A stretch of DNA of 64,000 bases from Bacillota bacterium (lineage in GTDB: Bacteria; Bacillota; Dethiobacteria; DTU022; UBA8154). Of this stretch, positions 10,920 through 48,480 are shown in pieces (within the stretch, counting starts at the first letter, position 1; each line of letters opens with the position of its first letter). The notes beneath the pieces are model-generated. The model was given only the letters and a program-made list of their open reading frames with translations. It was not told where the DNA came from and did no database searches. The DNA lies in assembly GCA_012728375.1 (NCBI GenBank), contig JAAYFF010000009.1, positions 8,940 to 72,939 on the forward strand. Direction: 5' to 3'. The position numbers were made by a program, and so were the translations under genes.

Positions 10920-12203
10920 ATGGGGCATCGCCATAAGAAGCGTTGCAGCTTATTTAAAAGATATCCGGTAGCTTTATTTTACCGAAAACTCCTGGAAGCG
11001 TTCGACCTGGACGGTTTTCTTCCTCAAGTAGCTTTCCTATTAAGGGAGGCTGTGCCGGAAATTGACGCTGCTGTTGTTTACCTTTATGATAATGCCGGGA
11101 AGCGGCTTGTGCCGGTTTCAGCCTGCGGCTGTGAACTGAAGGATGTCCGGGAGGTACATTTTGAGACAGAGACATCTCTGGTGGGGAAGGCTTTTAGCCG
11201 GGGAAGGCCTTTCCTGCAGAGGGAACAGGAAGCTGCCAAAGTCCTTGCACAGTATTTTAAACCCGCATCATGTGCACATTTCAGACCCGGCCAAATTGTG
11301 TCCTTATTTTGCGTTCCCATGGATCTTAGCGATGGTACCCGCTTCGGGTGCCTTCTGTTTTTCAGCGCGGCTAAAAATACTTTTTCACCCCGGCGTGCCG
11401 CTTTTTTAAAAAGGGCGGCAAAAATTATGGGACTTTTCATCTATAAGGCGCAGACTTTAAAACAAAGCCAGGAGAAAAAATATTCCAGTTTAGTATGCAC
11501 CCTCTCCCACGAGCTGCGCACCCCTTTGACCTGCATCAAGGGTTACGCAACAACGCTGCTCAGCAGGGAAGGGCAGTGGAGCAGGGATGAGGAGCAAGAG
11601 TTTTTAAAAATTATCGACGCGGAGGCCGACACGATGAAAGAGCTGATCAATGACTTGATGGATTCTTCCATGATCGAATCCGGCCTGCTCAGCGTCCATA
11701 AAGAACCGGTGCTTTTGCCGCGCATTATCAGCAAAGCTGTTGATGATGCGCGGCTGCGCACGACAAAACATAAATTTGTCGTCAGCATCCCAAGGGATTT
11801 TCCGGTGATAGAGGCTGATCCGGTCCGCACCAGGCAGGTTTTGGACAACCTCCTGGAAAACGCCATCAAGTATTCTCCCGAGGGAGGCCTTATTGTTGTG
11901 CAGTGCCGCATTGACCGCGGGGAGGTAATACTGAGCGTCGCGGATGAAGGTATGGGCATTGCACCGGAACATTTGAACCGCCTTTTTGAAAAATTTTATC
12001 GCGTGAAGTCGGATCTTGCCGGAACCGGGTTGGGGTTACCCGTTGCCTGTGAAATTGTGGAAAAACAGGGCGGAAGAATTTGGGCAAAAAGTACCCCCGG
12101 CAAGGGCAGCACCTTTTATTTTACCCTGCCCCTTACTCCCATGGACCAGGTTCCGGAAGAGGAGGAGTGTCCCGTTGAAGAAACAAACCATCCTGGTTGT
12201 TGA
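10920..12203 (+). CDS. Sensor histidine kinase (cytoplasmic GAF-like domain + HisKA + HATPase_c)
   Basis: H-box SHELRTPL, and the N, G1 and G2 boxes (DNLLENAIKYSP, DEGMGI, GTGLGL). There are no TM segments. Confidence 0.8.
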   Translation: MGHRHKKRCSLFKRYPVALFYRKLLEAFDLDGFLPQVAFLLREAVPEIDAAVVYLYDNAGKRLVPVSACGCELKDVREVHFETETSLVGKAFSRGRPFLQREQEAAKVLAQYFKPASCAHFRPGQIVSLFCVPMDLSDGTRFGCLLFFSAAKNTFSPRRAAFLKRAAKIMGLFIYKAQTLKQSQEKKYSSLVCTLSHELRTPLTCIKGYATTLLSREGQWSRDEEQEFLKIIDAEADTMKELINDLMDSSMIESGLLSVHKEPVLLPRIISKAVDDARLRTTKHKFVVSIPRDFPVIEADPVRTRQVLDNLLENAIKYSPEGGLIVVQCRIDRGEVILSVADEGMGIAPEHLNRLFEKFYRVKSDLAGTGLGLPVACEIVEKQGGRIWAKSTPGKGSTFYFTLPLTPMDQVPEEEECPVEETNHPGC

Positions 12204-12888
12204 TGATGAGTTGCGGGTGGCAAGGCTTATCCAGGCAAACCTGGAGGCAGGGGGGTACGCGGTGTCCTGCGCTTATGACGGCAGCGAGGCAGTACGCAAA
12301 GCCGCGGTTGAAAATCCGGACTTGATTATTCTCGATATTATTTTGCCCGGGGAGTTTGACGGGTATGATGTGTGCAGGCGCATTCGCTCTTTCTCCGGAG
12401 TGCCGATTATTATGCTTACTGCCAAGGCCCTGGAAAAAGACAAGGTTCGCGGCTTTGAGGCGGGCGCGGATGATTACCTGACCAAACCTTTTGGCTCGCA
12501 GGAACTTTTATCGCGCGTCAAAGCAGTTTTGCGCCGTGCGGGAGGGGAGCAGCAAAAAGGGCTGCAGGCACAGGGCAGCGCTTCTTTGAAATGCGATGCT
12601 TTGGAGATCGATTTCGTCCAAGCCTCTGTTGTGAGATCCGGCCGGAAAGTGAAACTTACCCCCACTGAATTTCGCCTGCTGAGCGAACTGGCCAGGTACC
12701 CGAACCAGCTTATTTCCCACGAGGATCTCCTTACCCGGGTCTGGGGTCCGGAGTACCGGGACGAGAGGGATTACCTGAGGGCTTACATTTGGCACCTCCG
12801 GAAGAAAATTGAGGAGGACCCCTCCAAGCCGAAATTTATTCTTTCCCGTACCGGTCTGGGATATATGCTTAAATTTCCTTTATGTTAA
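12175..12888 (+). CDS. OmpR-family response regulator
   Basis: REC domain (ILVVDDE...D...K) plus a winged-helix trans_reg_C domain. The TTG start, with a GGAGGAG RBS, overlaps the kinase 3' end by 29 nt. The ORF-track start at 12016 is rejected. Confidence 0.8.
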   Translation: MKKQTILVVDDELRVARLIQANLEAGGYAVSCAYDGSEAVRKAAVENPDLIILDIILPGEFDGYDVCRRIRSFSGVPIIMLTAKALEKDKVRGFEAGADDYLTKPFGSQELLSRVKAVLRRAGGEQQKGLQAQGSASLKCDALEIDFVQASVVRSGRKVKLTPTEFRLLSELARYPNQLISHEDLLTRVWGPEYRDERDYLRAYIWHLRKKIEEDPSKPKFILSRTGLGYMLKFPLC

Positions 12889-12893
12889 GGTGA

Positions 12894-13142
12894 GGGACAC
12901 ACCTCTTTCAGAGGAATGTCATTTACACTAATGTAAAGGGACACACCTCTTTCAGAGGAATGTCATTTACACTAATGTAAAGGGACACACCTCTTTCAGA
13001 GGAATGTCATTTACACTAATGTGCAGGGACATACCTCTTTCAGAGGAATGTCATTTACACTAATGTGCAGGGACATACCTCTTTCAGAGGAATGTCATTT
13101 ACACTAATGTAAAGGGACACACCTCTTTCAGAGGAATGTCCC
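12894..13142. repeat. Tandem array: 5 full + 1 partial copies of a 44-bp unit (family B: 28-bp GGGACACACCTCTTTCAGAGGAATGTCC hairpin + 16-bp TTTACACTAATGTAAA hairpin)
   Basis: Exact 44-bp periodicity, with units starting at 12894, 12938, 12982, 13026, 13070 and 13114. Units 3-4 carry co-varying substitutions (GGGACATACC / ..ATGTGCA). Confidence 0.95.
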
Positions 13143-13157
13143 TAAGTTTCGCCTTTT

Positions 13158-14009
13158 TTACCAAAGTTTCTGCATAAGTTCTGTGGCCAGGATGACGAAC
13201 TGGGAGCAGGGAAGAAAGATGAGCTGGCCGAGAAGGGTTCCCAGGATTTTTCCGGTAACCAGGCAGGTGACCATCGCGTTCAGCTCCCAGGGCTTTCTCT
13301 TTCCGGCCATGACCTGGTCGGTTATCAGGGAAGCATAAGGATCGATAAAAAAGGTGAGCAAAACGGTGCTGAAGCCGTTAAGGACCCCGGACATCTGGCT
13401 GGCGGTAAGGCGGTAATCCGGAACCAGGGCTCCGGCATAAATTGCTGAGAGGACTCCGGTGGTATTGATGGAAGCCACAAGGATGGTTAGCAATAAAATG
13501 CGCTTGACGAAGACCCTGTCCTTCAGGAGCAGCAGGTGGGAAAGGCGGGGGCGGCGGACGCTTTTTTCCAGGCGGTGATGGATCTTTTTAAAAAAATTAT
13601 CCGTATTGATCAGGCGAAGGAGCATGACACCCATGGACTCGCTTTTTTCCAGCAATCCGGTAAGGTAAATAAAAATGTGGATAAAAGTGGGAATAAGCGA
13701 GGCCGCCAGGAGACTGCCCAGGGTTGCCGAAAGGAGGATGCCGCGGATTGCTTCGGCCAAAAGGGCGGTATTTCCCGAGAGAATGGTCTCATCCACAAAA
13801 TAGCCGAGGAGGGGTGCCTGGACAAGGTTGGCCGTACGGGCCAGCAGGACGAGAACGCTGAACAGCGAGGCAGCCAGGTAAAGCCTCCTCGTCCTGATCC
13901 CGGCTATGCGGGCGCTGTAGGAGAGGGTCTCCACCATATGGATAACCCCTGTTAAAAGGCAGATTAAAAGCAGTCTTTCCGCTTCAGCGGATCCTGCGGG
14001 TATTAACAT
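13158..14009 (-). CDS. Integral membrane protein, probable lipid II flippase Amj (DUF2837) family
   Basis: Polytopic membrane protein. The N-terminal HMVETLSYSARIAGIRT...ARTAN pattern resembles Amj/YdaH. Confidence 0.45.
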   Translation of the reverse strand: MLIPAGSAEAERLLLICLLTGVIHMVETLSYSARIAGIRTRRLYLAASLFSVLVLLARTANLVQAPLLGYFVDETILSGNTALLAEAIRGILLSATLGSLLAASLIPTFIHIFIYLTGLLEKSESMGVMLLRLINTDNFFKKIHHRLEKSVRRPRLSHLLLLKDRVFVKRILLLTILVASINTTGVLSAIYAGALVPDYRLTASQMSGVLNGFSTVLLTFFIDPYASLITDQVMAGKRKPWELNAMVTCLVTGKILGTLLGQLIFLPCSQFVILATELMQKLW

Positions 14010-14184
14010 TTATTTTCCCCCTCCTTAACTTATATGCGCATCCTTGCGGTTTTATTTCTGCCGCAAAAGGACAAGCGAAGCAGGGGGACTGTTCCATCGT
14101 CTTCCTTCGCTTCGCTACGGAGACGCTCGTACCGTCCCCGCAGCTTCACTTATTTATTTACCTCTGTTACTCTTTTTTTTAAGT

Positions 14185-18542: not shown

Positions 18543-20318
18543 ATGAAGGGAACCGCGCGCAGGCGGCTTAAAAGGCTTAAAAAAAGAAAACTGCTTTTTT
18601 TAGCTATAATTTTTGCTCTGGTGCTGTTGCTGCCGGCAGCTTTTTTGTCGCAGGCCGGAAAGGCTTCGTACGATTACGATCTGGTGGTTGCGGGAAGCGA
18701 TCCCGAAGGAATCGCGGCAGCCATCTCCGCGGCCAGGAACGGGTTGAAGGTGCTCCTTGTGGACTGGCGCAGCGAGGTCGGCGGCCTTCTTACCCGCGGC
18801 TGGCTTTGCACCCTGGACATGAATTACGATCCCGCGGGAAACCTGCTCACCCTGGGCATCTTCCAGGAATTTTTTCAGCAGCTGGAAGGGGTTTCTTTTG
18901 ATGTGGTGACCGCGAGGACAGCGCTGGAAAAGATGCTTGCCGCGGAGAAGAATGTTCAGCTTCTTCTCGGGCAGAGGATTGGCGGGGTTTTGCGGAAAAA
19001 GAACCGGGTTGCAGCCGTTCTCCTGGAAAACGGGGAGCGGATTACAGCGGCGCGCTTTATCGATGCCACTCAGGATGCTGACCTGGCTGCCATGGCTGGT
19101 GCCGGTTTTACCCTGGGGATGGAGGATCTGGGCAGCAAGCGGCGACAGGCTGTCACATTGGTGTTGGAAGTTGGAGGCGTTGACTGGGACGAGCTAACCG
19201 CTGCCCTTGCCAAAGATCCCAGTGGGCACAGCGGCGCCTCCGGGACTTCTGCCTGGGGGTTTCTGGAGGAGATGCGGGGTTACCGGTCTGTTGATCCCCG
19301 GATCCGCAGCCGGGGTCTGAATATAAGCCTGCAGAACAGCGGGAATGTCCTTATTAATGCCATGCATATTTTTGGCGTTGATGCCCTTGACCCGAAGTCC
19401 TGGGAAGAGGCCCTGGAAAGGGGACAAAAGGAGGCGGAATTCCTCGTCCGCTACATGCGGCAGAACCTGCCGGGTTTTAAGGGCGCGTTTCTGGCTGGTA
19501 CGGCCCCGGAACTGTACGTGCGGGAGACGAGGCACCTGCAAGGTCTTTACCGGCTCACCATTGACGACGTCCTGGAACACAGGAATTTTTGGGACAAGAT
19601 TGCCCTTGGCTCTTACCCTGTGGATGTTCAGGCTACGGCGATGGATGACTGGGGGGCGGTAGTGGGCAACCCGGCTATGTACAGCATACCGCTGCGCTGC
19701 CTGATTCCTGGGGAGCTTACGAACCTGCTGGTGGTAGGCCGCGGGGCCAGCTACGATTCGCTGGCTCACGGCAGCGCCCGCGTCGTCCCCGTGGGGATAG
19801 CCGTGGGAGAGGCAGCCGGGGTTGCCGCGGCCATCTCCCTGGAAAAAGGGGTGAATTTTCACGAGCTGAGCAAAGACAAAAGCCTTGTGGCTTCCCTGCA
19901 GGAGCGGCTTAAAGAACAAGGCGCGTACCTGCGGGATTTTGAGTTTCCCTATGCGCTGGAAGGCCATCCCCTTTATCCCGTGATCAGGGAACTGCGCGCC
20001 TACGGCCTGGTGACGGGGCGCTACGACAATGATTACCGCCTGGAGGAGCCCGCTTGTCTGCGGGATATTTCCCTGGTAATAGACGGGTACCTGGAGAGGG
20101 CTCTGCAATACAAATTCCGGGCAAGGAATCTTTCACAGGAACAGCGCGAGGCTGCTGTAGAAGACCTGCTTTGGTTTTTGGAGGGGATTGAAGGGGCTGA
20201 TCCAGGAGCTTTAGGATTAGATGAACTTTTGGTAAAATATGGATTCTGTCAGGGAAGAACCCTTTACCGGGGGGAAACTTTCGCTTTCCTGCTGGAGTTT
20301 TTGCAGCGGCTTAACTAA
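18543..20318 (+). CDS. FAD-dependent oxidoreductase (PF12831-like), N-terminal signal/anchor
   Basis: DLVVAGSDPEGIAAAISAARNG dinucleotide-binding motif and a hydrophobic N-terminus. Confidence 0.65.
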   Translation: MKGTARRRLKRLKKRKLLFLAIIFALVLLLPAAFLSQAGKASYDYDLVVAGSDPEGIAAAISAARNGLKVLLVDWRSEVGGLLTRGWLCTLDMNYDPAGNLLTLGIFQEFFQQLEGVSFDVVTARTALEKMLAAEKNVQLLLGQRIGGVLRKKNRVAAVLLENGERITAARFIDATQDADLAAMAGAGFTLGMEDLGSKRRQAVTLVLEVGGVDWDELTAALAKDPSGHSGASGTSAWGFLEEMRGYRSVDPRIRSRGLNISLQNSGNVLINAMHIFGVDALDPKSWEEALERGQKEAEFLVRYMRQNLPGFKGAFLAGTAPELYVRETRHLQGLYRLTIDDVLEHRNFWDKIALGSYPVDVQATAMDDWGAVVGNPAMYSIPLRCLIPGELTNLLVVGRGASYDSLAHGSARVVPVGIAVGEAAGVAAAISLEKGVNFHELSKDKSLVASLQERLKEQGAYLRDFEFPYALEGHPLYPVIRELRAYGLVTGRYDNDYRLEEPACLRDISLVIDGYLERALQYKFRARNLSQEQREAAVEDLLWFLEGIEGADPGALGLDELLVKYGFCQGRTLYRGETFAFLLEFLQRLN

Positions 20319-20321
20319 GGT

Positions 20322-20352
20322 TCGGGGACACACCTCTTTCAGAGGAATGTCC
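20322..20352. repeat. Solo copy of the family-B 28-bp hairpin repeat (GGGACACACCTCTTTCAGAGGAATGTCC)
   Basis: Identical to the array unit. It lies 4 nt after the stop of the FAD oxidoreductase gene. Confidence 0.9.
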
Positions 20353-20456: not shown

Positions 20457-21878
20457 ATGATAAATGTTACTTTGAAACACCGTTTTAAAAAGGCGGTTGC
20501 CGTGCTGCTGCTACTGCTGCTACAGTTGCTGCTGCTTGGCTATCCTTCTACCGCGCTGCTTGGGCAGAATGAAAAAACCCTTTTGCAGGAAATTGAAAGT
20601 TATATAAAAAGCTATTACATATACAAGCCGGATGAAAAATATTTTCCCCTTCAATCCCTGGAAGAGCTTCCGAAAGTTTTTCAAGATCCCTATTCAACTT
20701 ATCTTGACAGGGAAGGAATGAAGATTTTTAAAGAAGGCCTGGAACGGTTTCTTCCTGGGGGCATCGGTATTTCCCTGGAGCAAAAAGGGTCACAATTTTT
20801 TGTAATAGCGGTTTTTCCCGGCACACCCGCTGATCGGGCGGGGATCAAGAGCGGGGATATGATTGTCTCTGTGAACGGCAGCCCGGTTTTCAATCTTAGC
20901 CTTGAAGAGGTTGTTACCCGGGTCCGCGGGGAAAAGGGAACAGGAGTCAGGCTTTGCGTTCGCCGGAATGAGCAAATTCTTGCCTTTGAAATGACCCGTG
21001 AGAAGATCTCCCTTCCGCTGGTGGAGTATACCTGGGCGGATGAGGGGATTGCCCTTTTAAAAATCTACAGCTTTGGTGACGGGCTGGTTAAAGAAACGGT
21101 TCGCCTGCTGGAGGAGCTGAAGGCAAAAGGGTTGCGGGGACTTATCCTTGATCTGCGGAATAACCAGGGAGGATATGTGGAAGAGGCCCTGGCAATGTGC
21201 TCTCTTTTTACGGACGGAGTTCTCCTGAAAATTAGGGAAAAGGACTCTTCGTGGCAGGAGGTCCGGGGGCCGGAGATGGGGGAAACCCTTTCAATTCCCG
21301 CGGTCGTCCTGGTAAATGGTTGGACCGCCAGTGCCGGGGAAATTATGGCTTCAGCCCTGAAGGAGAACAGGGCTGCCCTCCTGGTGGGGGAAACGACTTT
21401 TGGCAAGGGAACGATGCAGACCCTTTTCGACCTGGGAGAGGAGGGCTGCCTGAAACTGACCACAGCCGAATTTACTTCTCCGCAGGGACGAACAATAGAA
21501 GGCAGGGGCATAGAACCGCAGTATCTGGTGCCTTTAGCCGGCGATCAGCTCCCGCTGGCCCTGAAGCTTTTGCACTGCAGGCTTAAAGCCGGAAAGGAAG
21601 ATGCCTTGTTCAAACCTGTCCGCATAAACGGCCGTGCATACTATCCTCTGCGCGCAGTTTTGCTGCAGACCGGACGGGGGATTGCCGCGGGGGATTCTCC
21701 GGGCGTTTACCTTTTTTACTGGGACAACATCCTTTACCGCCTGGATCTTCGCAAGAGCCTTCTCAGCTGGGAGGACCATACGGGAGAGGCACGGAACATG
21801 AAGGTTCTTTACCATCAGGGTATTACCTATGTGCAGGGAGGGTTTCTGGCAGAAGCCCTGGGACTGCCGATTAATTAA
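20457..21878 (+). CDS. S41 family C-terminal processing peptidase with PDZ domain and C-terminal copper-amine-oxidase-N-terminal-like domain
   Basis: PDZ (GIKSGDMIVSVNG) plus the S41 catalytic region (VLVNGWTASAGEI...TFGKG). The C-terminal roughly 90 aa resemble a Cu_amine_oxidN1 fold. Confidence 0.75.
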   Translation: MINVTLKHRFKKAVAVLLLLLLQLLLLGYPSTALLGQNEKTLLQEIESYIKSYYIYKPDEKYFPLQSLEELPKVFQDPYSTYLDREGMKIFKEGLERFLPGGIGISLEQKGSQFFVIAVFPGTPADRAGIKSGDMIVSVNGSPVFNLSLEEVVTRVRGEKGTGVRLCVRRNEQILAFEMTREKISLPLVEYTWADEGIALLKIYSFGDGLVKETVRLLEELKAKGLRGLILDLRNNQGGYVEEALAMCSLFTDGVLLKIREKDSSWQEVRGPEMGETLSIPAVVLVNGWTASAGEIMASALKENRAALLVGETTFGKGTMQTLFDLGEEGCLKLTTAEFTSPQGRTIEGRGIEPQYLVPLAGDQLPLALKLLHCRLKAGKEDALFKPVRINGRAYYPLRAVLLQTGRGIAAGDSPGVYLFYWDNILYRLDLRKSLLSWEDHTGEARNMKVLYHQGITYVQGGFLAEALGLPIN

Positions 21879-26822: not shown

Positions 26823-27596
26823 ATGTCGAATCATTTGCCGGATAAAGTAAATGCAAAAAAAAATGAGGCCGCCCGCATCCGCATCCTTGGGCGGCCTGTT
26901 GACTGCCTGACCGGTGATGCGGCTGTGGGGAGGATCATGCGGGCGTGGAAGGAGAAAACATTTCTTCATGTTGTTACCGCTAATGCGGAAATGATCTACC
27001 AGAGCACCCGTGACGGGGAACTGGCAGCAATAATTGAAGAGGCCGGGCTGGTTACAGCAGACGGTATTGGTGTGGTTCTGGCTTCGCGCCTTTTAGGCAG
27101 GCCTGTTCCTGAACGGGTGGCTGGTTATGATTTGATGCTGGAATGTCTGAAACAGGCTGCCCGCCAAAAGGTTCCGGTTTTTTTCTTTGGGGCTCGTCCC
27201 GAAGTCCTGCAGGAGGCTGTTGCGGCTGCTGTCCGCAGGTTTCCCGGATTACGGGTGGTGGGAAGCAGGGACGGCTATTTCGGCGAAGAGGAAGAAGAAG
27301 GGATTGCACACCTGATCTCACAGCAGAAACCGGGACTTTTGCTGGTGGCCATGGGTGTTCCCAAACAGGAAAAATGGATCTTCCGCTTTCGGGACATGCT
27401 CCCCCCCTGCGTTGCCATTGGGGTTGGGGGGAGCTTTGACGTACTTTCCGGTAAGGTCCGCCGGGCACCGTCCTGGGTGCAGCGCGCGGGGCTGGAATGG
27501 CTTTACCGCATTGCCCGTGAGCCTTCACGTCTGAAAAGGGCGGCAAATCTTCCCCTTTTTCTCCTGTCCGTGCTGTTGCAGGTTCTACGGCGGTGA
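26823..27596 (+). CDS. tagA: WecB/TagA/CpsF family glycosyltransferase
   Basis: Typical TagA length and motifs (VVTANAEM, VFFFGARPEV, GVPKQEKWI). Confidence 0.8.
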   Translation: MSNHLPDKVNAKKNEAARIRILGRPVDCLTGDAAVGRIMRAWKEKTFLHVVTANAEMIYQSTRDGELAAIIEEAGLVTADGIGVVLASRLLGRPVPERVAGYDLMLECLKQAARQKVPVFFFGARPEVLQEAVAAAVRRFPGLRVVGSRDGYFGEEEEEGIAHLISQQKPGLLLVAMGVPKQEKWIFRFRDMLPPCVAIGVGGSFDVLSGKVRRAPSWVQRAGLEWLYRIAREPSRLKRAANLPLFLLSVLLQVLRR

Positions 27597-27666
27597 AGCA
27601 TAGGGACGGTTCTCCTGCTTCAAGAAAAAGAAAAGGTGAAGCAAAAGAACCGTCCCCGTGCTTCAC
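27593..27666. repeat. Paired-hairpin inverted repeat element (family A), copy 2: 30-bp arms (4 mismatches), 13-nt A-rich spacer
   Basis: gtgaagcatagggacggttctcctgcttca ... gtgaagcaaaagaaccgtccccgtgcttcac. It overlaps the stop codons of both convergent genes, tagA and the dehydrogenase. Confidence 0.9.
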
Positions 27667-34369: not shown

Positions 34370-34426
34370 ACAGGGGACGGTTCTCTGTTTCCCTAAATGA
34401 AGCAAAAGAACCGTCCCCTTGCTTCA
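34370..34426. repeat. Paired-hairpin element (family A), copy 3 (degenerate left arm)
   Basis: gaaacaggggacggttctctgtttc ... tgaagcaaaagaaccgtccccttgcttca. It lies between tRNA-Thr and the downstream gene. Confidence 0.85.
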
Positions 34427-34462
34427 AAGAAATAGGCCCGCACTTATGGCGGGCTATAATGT

Positions 34463-34538
34463 TGGAGCCGGCAAGAGGACTTGAACCCCCAACAGGCGGA
34501 TTACGATTCCGCTGCTCTACCAATTGAGCTATGCCGGC
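34463..34538 (-). tRNA. tRNA-Thr (anticodon CGU)
   Basis: The 76-nt cloverleaf has a GCCGGCA acceptor stem, a TAGCTCAATTGGTAGAGCA D-arm, anticodon loop AT-CGT-AA, T-loop GGTTCAAGTCC, and a 3' CCA. Confidence 0.85.
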
Positions 34539-38854: not shown

Positions 38855-39090
38855 CTCTTATCCAGAGCGGGGGAGAGACGGGCTCTATGAACCCCGGCAA
38901 CCGGACCTTTAAGGAGGGCGTAGCGCTGTTTTGTCTGCGCAGAAGGCAAATGCCCTTCCTTACGGATCGACTGGTGCCAAGTCCCACAGGGCCGGTATGG
39001 CGGCATTTTTGCCGGCTGTCCTGGGAGATAAGAGGTTAGGTTTTGCATGACCTCTGCCTTCCAGGCACGGGGTTTTTTCTTTTATCTTTT
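38855..39090 (+). promoter_or_regulatory. SAM-I (S-box) riboswitch with terminator/attenuator, leader of metK
   Basis: cTCTTATCcAGAGcGGgGGAGaGAC...CCCGGCAACC...GGTGCCAA.TCC...GGGAGATAAGAG, then a T-run at about 39075-39086. A TTGACA-17-TATGAT promoter lies at about 38803-38831. Confidence 0.85.
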
Positions 39091-42642: not shown

Positions 42643-42724
42643 ATGCTAAATTAAAAGCCAAGGCTTGCTCTTTTCTTTTCTTTTCTTGTCTTGTCTTGTC
42701 TTGTTTCTTATTTTACAGCAGAGA

Positions 42725-48395: not shown

Positions 48396-48480
48396 TGAAG
48401 CAAAGGGACGGTTTGAAGCATGGGGACGGTTCTCCTGCTTCATTCAGAGAATGAAGCAGGAGAACCGTCCCCATGCTTCA
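48396..48480. repeat. Paired-hairpin inverted repeat element (family A), copy 4: half-unit + perfect 29-bp arms, 9-nt spacer
   Basis: tgaagcaaagggacggtt + tgaagcatggggacggttctcctgcttca ... tgaagcaggagaaccgtccccatgcttca. The right arm contains the queT stop codon. Confidence 0.9.

Follow-up and report, generated by a model that had tools for sequence, protein, structure and literature searches.

The window analysed in this work, that is, the whole stretch of 64,000 nucleotides from contig JAAYFF010000009.1 of a Bacillota bacterium, harbours a tandem array of palindromic units in the gap between two convergent genes, together with a solo copy of the same unit and several related palindromic repeats. 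The features considered are the following (coordinates are those of the window):

12175–12888, + strand: gene of an OmpR-type response regulator (Pfam Response_reg and Trans_reg_C; ORF list)
12886–12893, + strand: 5′ flank of the first array unit, TAAGGTGA (family consensus TAAGGTAAG, from the logo of 118 distinct sites)
12894–13141, + strand: 44-bp array, composed of six 28-nt hairpin cores and five 16-nt linkers
12894, 12938, 12982, 13026, 13070 and 13114, + strand: starts of the six cores, at exact 44-bp spacing
12922–12937, 12966–12981, 13010–13025, 13054–13069 and 13098–13113, + strand: the five 16-nt linkers
13142–13146, + strand: 3′ tail of the array, CTAAG, in which a second array at another locus (L131) also ends
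13158–14009, − strand: convergent Amj gene (lipid II flippase family, DUF2837; Pfam PF10997; ORF list)
14073–14150, no strand assigned: palindrome of about 78 nt, GCGAAGCAGGGGGACTGTTCCATCGTCTTCC...GGAGACGCTCGTACCGTCCCCGCAGCTTCAC, called here module B, an outer module that lacks the hairpin
20316–20352, + strand: solo copy, with the flank TAAGGTTC followed by GGGGACACACCTCTTTCAGAGGAATGTCC (20324–20352)
2179–2262, no strand assigned: inverted doublet of family A (TGAAGCAyGGGGACGGTTCTyCTGCTTCA), of the same GGGGAC repeat system
27593–27666, 34373–34428 and 48414–48480: further family A copies

Tandem Repeats Finder delimited the array at 12893–13140 with a period of 44, 5.6 copies, 97% matches, no indels and a score of 454, in agreement with the periodicity and copy number advanced in the original prediction, which had been made from the sequence of the window. 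The 28-nt core GGGACACACCTCTTTCAGAGGAATGTCC gave six matches with up to two mismatches in the array, all of them on the + strand, and an exact match at the solo site (20325–20352, + strand), while none was obtained in 100 dinucleotide-shuffled sequences; within the window, the 16-nt linker ATTTACACTAATGTAA was confined to the array. Junctions between units were of two types, ...TGTAAA+GGGACAC (A) and ...TGTGCA+GGGACAT (B), arranged in the order A A B B A. Three linked substitutions (AA to GC in the linker and C7 to T in the core) were common to two adjacent units, as had been noted, which supports the duplication history proposed for them. Inner cores ended in TGTCA and the last one in TGTCC. 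The 5′ flank of the first unit, TTAAGGTGA, was unlike the linkers, indicating that the 44-nt unit or its linker did not come from duplication of local sequence; this difference hints at insertion rather than at pure slippage. Elsewhere in the window (42664–42704), a CTTTT/CTTGT pentanucleotide run of about eight copies follows a 742-aa ORF and could be slippage-prone.

The TAA stop codon of the response regulator (12886–12888) falls within the conserved 5′ flank of the repeat, 5 nt separate it from the first core, and a distance of 16 nt lies between the last core and the end of the Amj ORF (13158); the gene context that had been described was thus correct. On the − strand, the array would constitute the 3′ untranslated region of the convergent Amj gene. 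Genes located within 6 kb of the array code for a histidine kinase, the response regulator, Amj and an ABC transporter. At the solo site, the TAA of the flank is the stop codon of an FAD oxidoreductase (20316–20318). The isolated unit foreseen after this stop was present with an exact core, although at a distance of 6 nt from the end of the ORF at 20318 (5 nt when the additional 5′ G is included) instead of the 4 nt given before. Two further assemblies carried the solo copy in identical form. Near the 5′ end of an S41 peptidase ORF, at 20503–20536, an imperfect (TGC)n/CTG run probably encodes a Leu-rich signal peptide.

The predicted folding energy of the main hairpin as RNA was −18.7 kcal/mol on one strand and −21.3 kcal/mol on the other, and about −10.5 as DNA, the structure being stable on both strands. 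Two hairpins per unit had been proposed; the main one withstood the folding analysis whereas the 16-nt one was marginal as RNA (−1.5 kcal/mol) and imperfect in two of the five linkers. This second hairpin is weak and lineage-specific, and a double-hairpin unit does not describe the family in general, the linker being different in every other array (periods of 39, 40, 42, and 43 bp) except for the second array, L131. Folding of the whole array departed from that of shuffled sequences with z values of −9.4 (+ strand) and −15.5 (− strand); because each part is palindromic, the entire array can fold as one long hairpin. The palindromic linker also puts UUUAC directly after each stem on both strands.

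The dispersal of the unit was analyzed by scanning one genome per species with the pattern GGGACA NN CCTCT NNN AGAGG NN TGTC (20 fixed and 7 free positions). The core GGGGACACACCTCT-nnn-AGAGGAATGTCCCC appeared at no fewer than 115 intergenic stretches in at least 26 species-level assemblies of anaerobic Bacillota, a single MAG carrying at least 31 loci, so that the dispersed core suspected from its two occurrences in the window was corroborated. Carriers among the matches listed included Dethiobacter and other Bacillota MAGs, Desulfocucumis (including the isolate NAW-5), Ca. Formimonas warabiya DCMF, Peptococcaceae, Syntrophomonadaceae and two rumen 'Eubacterium' MAGs. The unit is therefore dispersed in intergenic DNA of many anaerobic Bacillota. 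Some MAGs were labelled 'Desulfovibrio' or 'Desulfovibrionaceae', and spread across phyla was considered and rejected: these MAGs have 45–46% G+C and syntenic operons with 54–79% amino acid identity to the window, and as relatives of the window organism they place the spread within Bacillota. The labels of JAGVAS01 ('Desulfovibrio sp. DeMMO6_36') and CAZQXY01 ('Desulfovibrionaceae') look wrong.

Conservation was uneven along the unit. The internal loop, left free in the scan, was CA/AA in 117 of the 120 listed sites. Upstream, the core was preceded by the conserved flank AAGGTAAG (logo consensus tAAGGTAAG, 118 distinct sites), with G as the base immediately before the core, whereas the three bases following it were CCC (3′ flank consensus CCCA). 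The hairpin loop was variable (TTC, TGC, TAC, or TTT), and the inner stem showed compensatory UA-to-CG changes at two pairs, with CCTCC/GGAGG in L131 and CCCC/GGGG in several genomes. The basic unit is thus about 40 nt long: AAGGTAAG + GGGGACA-CA-CCTCT-loop-AGAGG-AA-TGTCCCC. Since the outer stem, the internal loop and the foot are conserved at the level of sequence, whereas the inner stem conserves no more than its pairing, we infer that a folded single strand is recognised.

Rfam searches at gathering threshold were negative for the array of the window and for 19 related loci; with the array at E ≤ 10, the best sub-threshold hits were chance microRNA models of up to 24 bits. No core match was found in viral contigs or in phage and plasmid collections; a full-text search for the core in both orientations retrieved MMP7-type human primers only, and a keyword literature search yielded no REP or MITE reports in these taxa. 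The repeat family is apparently undescribed in Rfam and in the open-access literature covered by our limited search. A SAM riboswitch (67 bits) lies at 38855–39034 (+ strand) of the window.

Sites of the family were essentially intergenic, with tandem, convergent and divergent gaps all represented, and the CACACC strand ran with the genes in 32 cases vs. 19, which is a weak orientation bias. Placement just after a stop codon, which the two loci of the window had suggested, was not a rule: a long ORF ended within 30 nt upstream at 9 of the 125 listed sites. At five of these nine, both window loci among them, the stop was a TAA among the 9 bases that precede the core, where the conserved flank lies. 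The neighbours were unrelated housekeeping genes, and all-against-all clustering of 1300 ORFs revealed no recurrent neighbour protein, only generic families (ABC transporters, kinases). Pairs of inverted hairpins bracketing a gene at 250–3000 nt were not found. Hairpin composites were located at two points of a ribosomal-protein S10 operon, one ahead of S10 and the other separating S19 from L22 (L064, 200–450 and 3690–3815), and hairpins were also observed about 10 nt downstream of 5S rRNA (L038, 2312–2418, and L067, about 5931).

In each lineage the hairpin was embedded in longer, lineage-specific mosaics. One of about 370 bp, with the hairpin in a central position, had at least 15 copies with 84–94% identity in DeMMO6_36 and SURF_39 (L048, L097, L102, L106, L112, and others, from JAGVAS01 and QZJM01). 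Contigs often ended 50–113 nt beyond this mosaic, indicating that it breaks short-read assemblies. The Formimonas mosaic was of about 250 bp and that of the rumen MAGs was composed of multiple modules. In one orthologous gap, a whole mosaic of about 400 nt, not the hairpin alone, was present in DeMMO6_36 and missing in SURF_39.

The mosaics combine the unit with other GGGGAC modules. The palindrome that we call module B lies in the window between the start of amj and the stop of an FtsX-permease gene, and elsewhere (L005, L078, L083, L091) the hairpin unit is inserted at its centre. Family A cores (GGGGACGGTTC-type) were found within 150 nt of the hairpin at 21 of 119 listed loci vs. about 4% expected, so the link to family A, originally based on the shared GGGAC start, takes the form of physical nesting at other loci. 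Family A itself mostly forms inverted doublets 3–16 nt apart, a REPIN-like layout, with the GGGGACGGTTC core in the loop of each unit; a tRNA gene (34466–34538, − strand) adjoins one of its copies in the window.

Tandem half-copies flanked the hairpin at 42 of 90 solo sites. They were polar: left arms preceded the hairpin (5′) and right arms followed it (3′), the reverse being almost never seen, and the counts on the two sides correlated (rho = 0.55). Nested insertion was rejected as their simple source, as the AGAG of the inner stem is missing from the right half-copies. This polar architecture is explained neither by slippage alone nor by simple nested insertion.

Full units were arranged head-to-tail at several other loci (L105, L038, L046, L111), each array having its own linker and periods being 39, 40, 42, or 43 bp; L105 contained at least five units with period 40 and L038 three units with period 39. 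A metagenome scan for the core-linker junction returned the known locus and a second array (L131, 2270–2477; Ga0209537_1000236), which was found at an unrelated locus in one of the metagenomes with near-identical strains described below. This array comprises four units and a degenerate one, and both its linker TTTACACTAATGTAAA and its tail GTCC-CTAAG are identical to those of the window, while its four units all carry the compensatory CCTCC/GGAGG stem. The two genes that converge on this array are one of nucleotidyltransferase/phosphomannomutase type and one for a small membrane protein, and the CTAAG tail contains the stop codon of whichever is on the − strand. It appears that two loci received a unit or short array together with its linker, and that homogenisation or amplification followed at each locus.

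Relatives of the window organism differed in the presence of the unit. The closest named one, Dethiobacter alkaliphilus BL5_bin.7 (86% Amj identity), had no array at amj and carried, instead of the solo copy, a degenerate one of reversed orientation downstream of its orthologue of the FAD-oxidoreductase gene, whereas a relative at 83% Amj identity had neither the array nor the solo copy. This comparison shows gain or loss of the unit between close relatives, the intergenic DNA of these 83–86% relatives being too diverged for exact insertion boundaries to be read.

Copy number also varied among near-identical strains. Contigs encoding the exact Amj protein of the window were located in five independent assemblies. 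The gap between the regulator and amj contained three hairpins in JGI 3300027510 and 3300002167, with junctions of the TGCA+GGGACAT type (B B), and two in ENA ERZ27280784, with a single junction of this type (B); a Logan contig ended inside the array with a TAAA+GGGACAC end as in the window. In the shorter alleles, the last hairpin was of the CAT type and joined straight to the 3′ flank, a junction that is absent from the window, which identifies these shorter arrays as genuine alleles rather than the result of collapse. Apart from the array, the JGI contig was 99.1–99.4% identical to the window. The array of the window therefore varies in copy number (2, 3, or 6 hairpins) and in unit composition among near-identical strains, as anticipated when it was considered a possible hypervariable satellite, and its occurrence in JGI, ENA, and Logan assemblies, with two or three hairpins (JGI, ENA) and a different terminal unit, dispels the suspicion of an assembly artefact.

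We consider it probable (about 0.65) that the array represents a local tandem expansion of one member of an interspersed family of intergenic palindromic repeats, similar to REP/BIME, BOX, or MIRU elements. The series of alleles suggests that copy number would change by slipped-strand mispairing or by unequal recombination between 44-bp units. In addition, a unit or short array, including the linker, may occasionally be moved by a trans-acting enzyme recognising the folded single strand, as suggested by the conservation pattern, the second array, and the gain or loss between relatives; we use the term mobile with reference to the distribution of the repeat, as no mobilising enzyme was found. 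Conservation of about 30 nt of the hairpin across several Bacillota classes counts against the local-expansion reading.

In an alternative reading, the arrays would grow by enzymatic insertion. According to it, the hairpin, with its AAGGTAAG foot and CA/AA loop, would be the recognition site of a putative trans-acting enzyme spread among distant anaerobic Bacillota, most plausibly a single-strand DNA transposase or nuclease. More specifically, it could be the substrate of an HUH/Y1 transposase (RAYT-like or similar to IS200/IS605 TnpA) or of a comparable enzyme, and arrays would then result not from slippage but from 44-nt units being inserted, one after another, at a specific site directly 3′ of the TGTC with which an existing hairpin ends. 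We regard both the general proposal and its transposase version as rather unlikely; what leaves room for a new mobilisation system specific to the hairpin is the conservation of some 40 nt across classes, together with the invariant internal loop, the ladders of polar half-copies, and the dispersed 44-nt unit. Hairpins of IS608 show a conservation pattern like the one found here, which affects sequence in the outer stem, internal loop, and asymmetric 5′ flank and structure alone in the inner stem. REP-RAYT hairpins show this pattern as well (PMC3479197), and RAYT Group 1 has been reported in Clostridia (PMC5581495). The ends of the units fit such an insertion, inner units of three independent arrays finishing in TGTCA and only the last one in TGTCC(CC), as do the presence of one linker at two unrelated loci and the distinct 5′ flank of the first unit of the window. 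In contrast, tblastn with three Y1 query sequences detected no Y1 transposase in the window or in the roughly 0.8 Mb that surround 120 sites, neither an inverted pair of hairpins around a gene nor a GTAG-type motif was observed, and the inner junctions of L105 retain full GTCCCC ends. If this enzyme existed, it would build head-to-tail arrays, by insertion 3′ of TGTC, as well as the ladders of polar half-copies. Gram-positive anaerobes would then possess a host-element system akin to REP-RAYT, in which self-targeted amplification would follow a new mode.

It is improbable that the array is a selected bidirectional terminator or insulator between convergent genes, and the whole family a terminator module. 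The location of both arrays with this linker between convergent genes, the UUUAC following every stem on both strands, the conserved flank of the CATTCC strand (CCCC-UUACCUU), and the hairpins downstream of 5S rRNA in L038 and L067 would agree with this function, and a terminator scan flagged five sites on the + strand. What passed the scan, however, was only the 5-bp inner stem plus AATGTCATTT, and the U-tracts were short and interrupted. Moreover, family members occur in divergent gaps and inside operons; the hairpin between S19 and L22 in the S10 ribosomal-protein operon (L064) argues against efficient termination in the CACACC orientation, and the more frequent orientation (32 vs. 19) puts the strand lacking the U-tract in the sense direction. 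A single hairpin would be enough for termination, and strains with two and three units exist.

Far less credible is an RNA gene with processed repeats, whether a type III antitoxin of the ToxI type or a sponge for an RNA-binding protein. ToxI is made of tandem repeats of 34–45 nt that are cut into monomers, and the 5.6 direct repeats of 44 nt, each one strongly structured, resemble such arrays in number and size. No toxin-like gene follows the array, though, its neighbours being the response regulator and the convergent Amj gene as identified by Pfam; no promoter-like site was found upstream of the array and no Rfam match was obtained, so the protein or sRNA sponge contemplated in the original prediction received no support. 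The hairpin is also solo at more than 100 unrelated intergenic sites and its copy number varies freely.

CRISPR arrays have unique spacers of about 26–72 nt and usually cas genes nearby; in spite of the regular, partly palindromic 28-nt repeat and of the tendency of short-read assemblers to mis-size tandem repeats, a degenerate or orphan CRISPR or an assembly artefact can practically be discarded, as the 'spacers' are 16 nt long and identical or nearly so, cas-type domains were absent among the genes called within 6 kb (CRISPR had already been dismissed on account of the spacers), and the array was recovered in five independent assemblies, with an allele whose CAT-hairpin/3′-flank junction does not occur in the window.

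With regard to function, the probable local expansion of an interspersed repeat would have a passive effect when expressed. Both convergent transcripts, that of the response regulator and that of amj, would carry six predicted stem-loops at their 3′ ends, where these structures would hinder 3′ exonucleases, protect the 3′ ends, and damp read-through into the opposite gene. In Escherichia coli, REPs within 15 nt of stop codons have been reported to interfere with translation termination; the array may also disturb termination of the response regulator, as only 5 nt lie between the stop codon and its first stem. For the genes of the window, the consequence would be modest, probably concerning the stability of mRNA 3′ ends and the read-through between the response regulator and amj.

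Much is known of interspersed palindromic repeats in Proteobacteria and in a few pathogens, but very little has been described for the deep-branching anaerobic Bacillota, which dominate digesters and subsurface sites. The family provides a compact, recognisable motif for these lineages and explains some of the contig breaks in MAGs, and its variable copy number would offer loci for strain typing. It also raises the question of what recognises a hairpin of about 40 nt conserved across classes.

Among known systems, the family resembles REP/BIME and REPIN elements in being composed of short imperfect palindromes (about 30 nt) in which a stem mismatch and an asymmetric 5′ flank are conserved (PMC3116915, PMC5581495, PMC3479197). 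As with REP/BIME, the copies are extragenic, numerous in each genome, combined in mosaics, located inside operons or after stop codons, and able to give stable stem-loops at RNA 3′ ends. In contrast to these elements, the flank here is AAGGTAAG (tAAGGTAAG), conserved and asymmetric but different from GTAG, and array units are head-to-tail and all direct, not alternating or inverted, although family A does form inverted doublets in the window. No RAYT was found with the three Y1 queries in the window and about 0.8 Mb of loci, and the same 30 nt or so are shared by several Bacillota classes, whereas a REP remains within one genus. To our knowledge, the polar tandem half-copies have no REP counterpart.

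Short conserved repeats bracketing variable modules, which form lineage-specific intergenic mosaics, are likewise found in the dRS3/NIME and Correia elements of Neisseria, with other sequences and another architecture; dRS3 is the target of a known recombinase. In layout, the family is also similar to BOX of Streptococcus pneumoniae (boxA-boxB(n)-boxC), a modular intergenic repeat of Bacillota with distinct modules at its 5′ and 3′ ends. The internal module of BOX, of about 45 nt, occurs in variable tandem number, the element as a whole is predicted to form a long stem-loop, and we know of no transposase for it. The periods of 39–44 bp of the arrays described here, with a distinct 5′ flank and 3′ tail, may correspond to this arrangement; in contrast to BOX, each single unit forms a hairpin, and units also occur alone or as halves.

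The likeness to the MIRU-VNTR loci of Mycobacterium tuberculosis lies in the tandem units of 40–100 bp at intergenic positions, in their polymorphism among strains, and in ends that overlap the upstream stop codon. MIRU units, however, are not hairpins and are confined to mycobacteria. As in those VNTRs, intergenic tandem units were found here at several loci, with a strain-polymorphic number (6, 3, and 2 at about 99% identity); the present family differs from MIRU in that it consists mostly of solo copies, arrays such as that of the window being exceptional.
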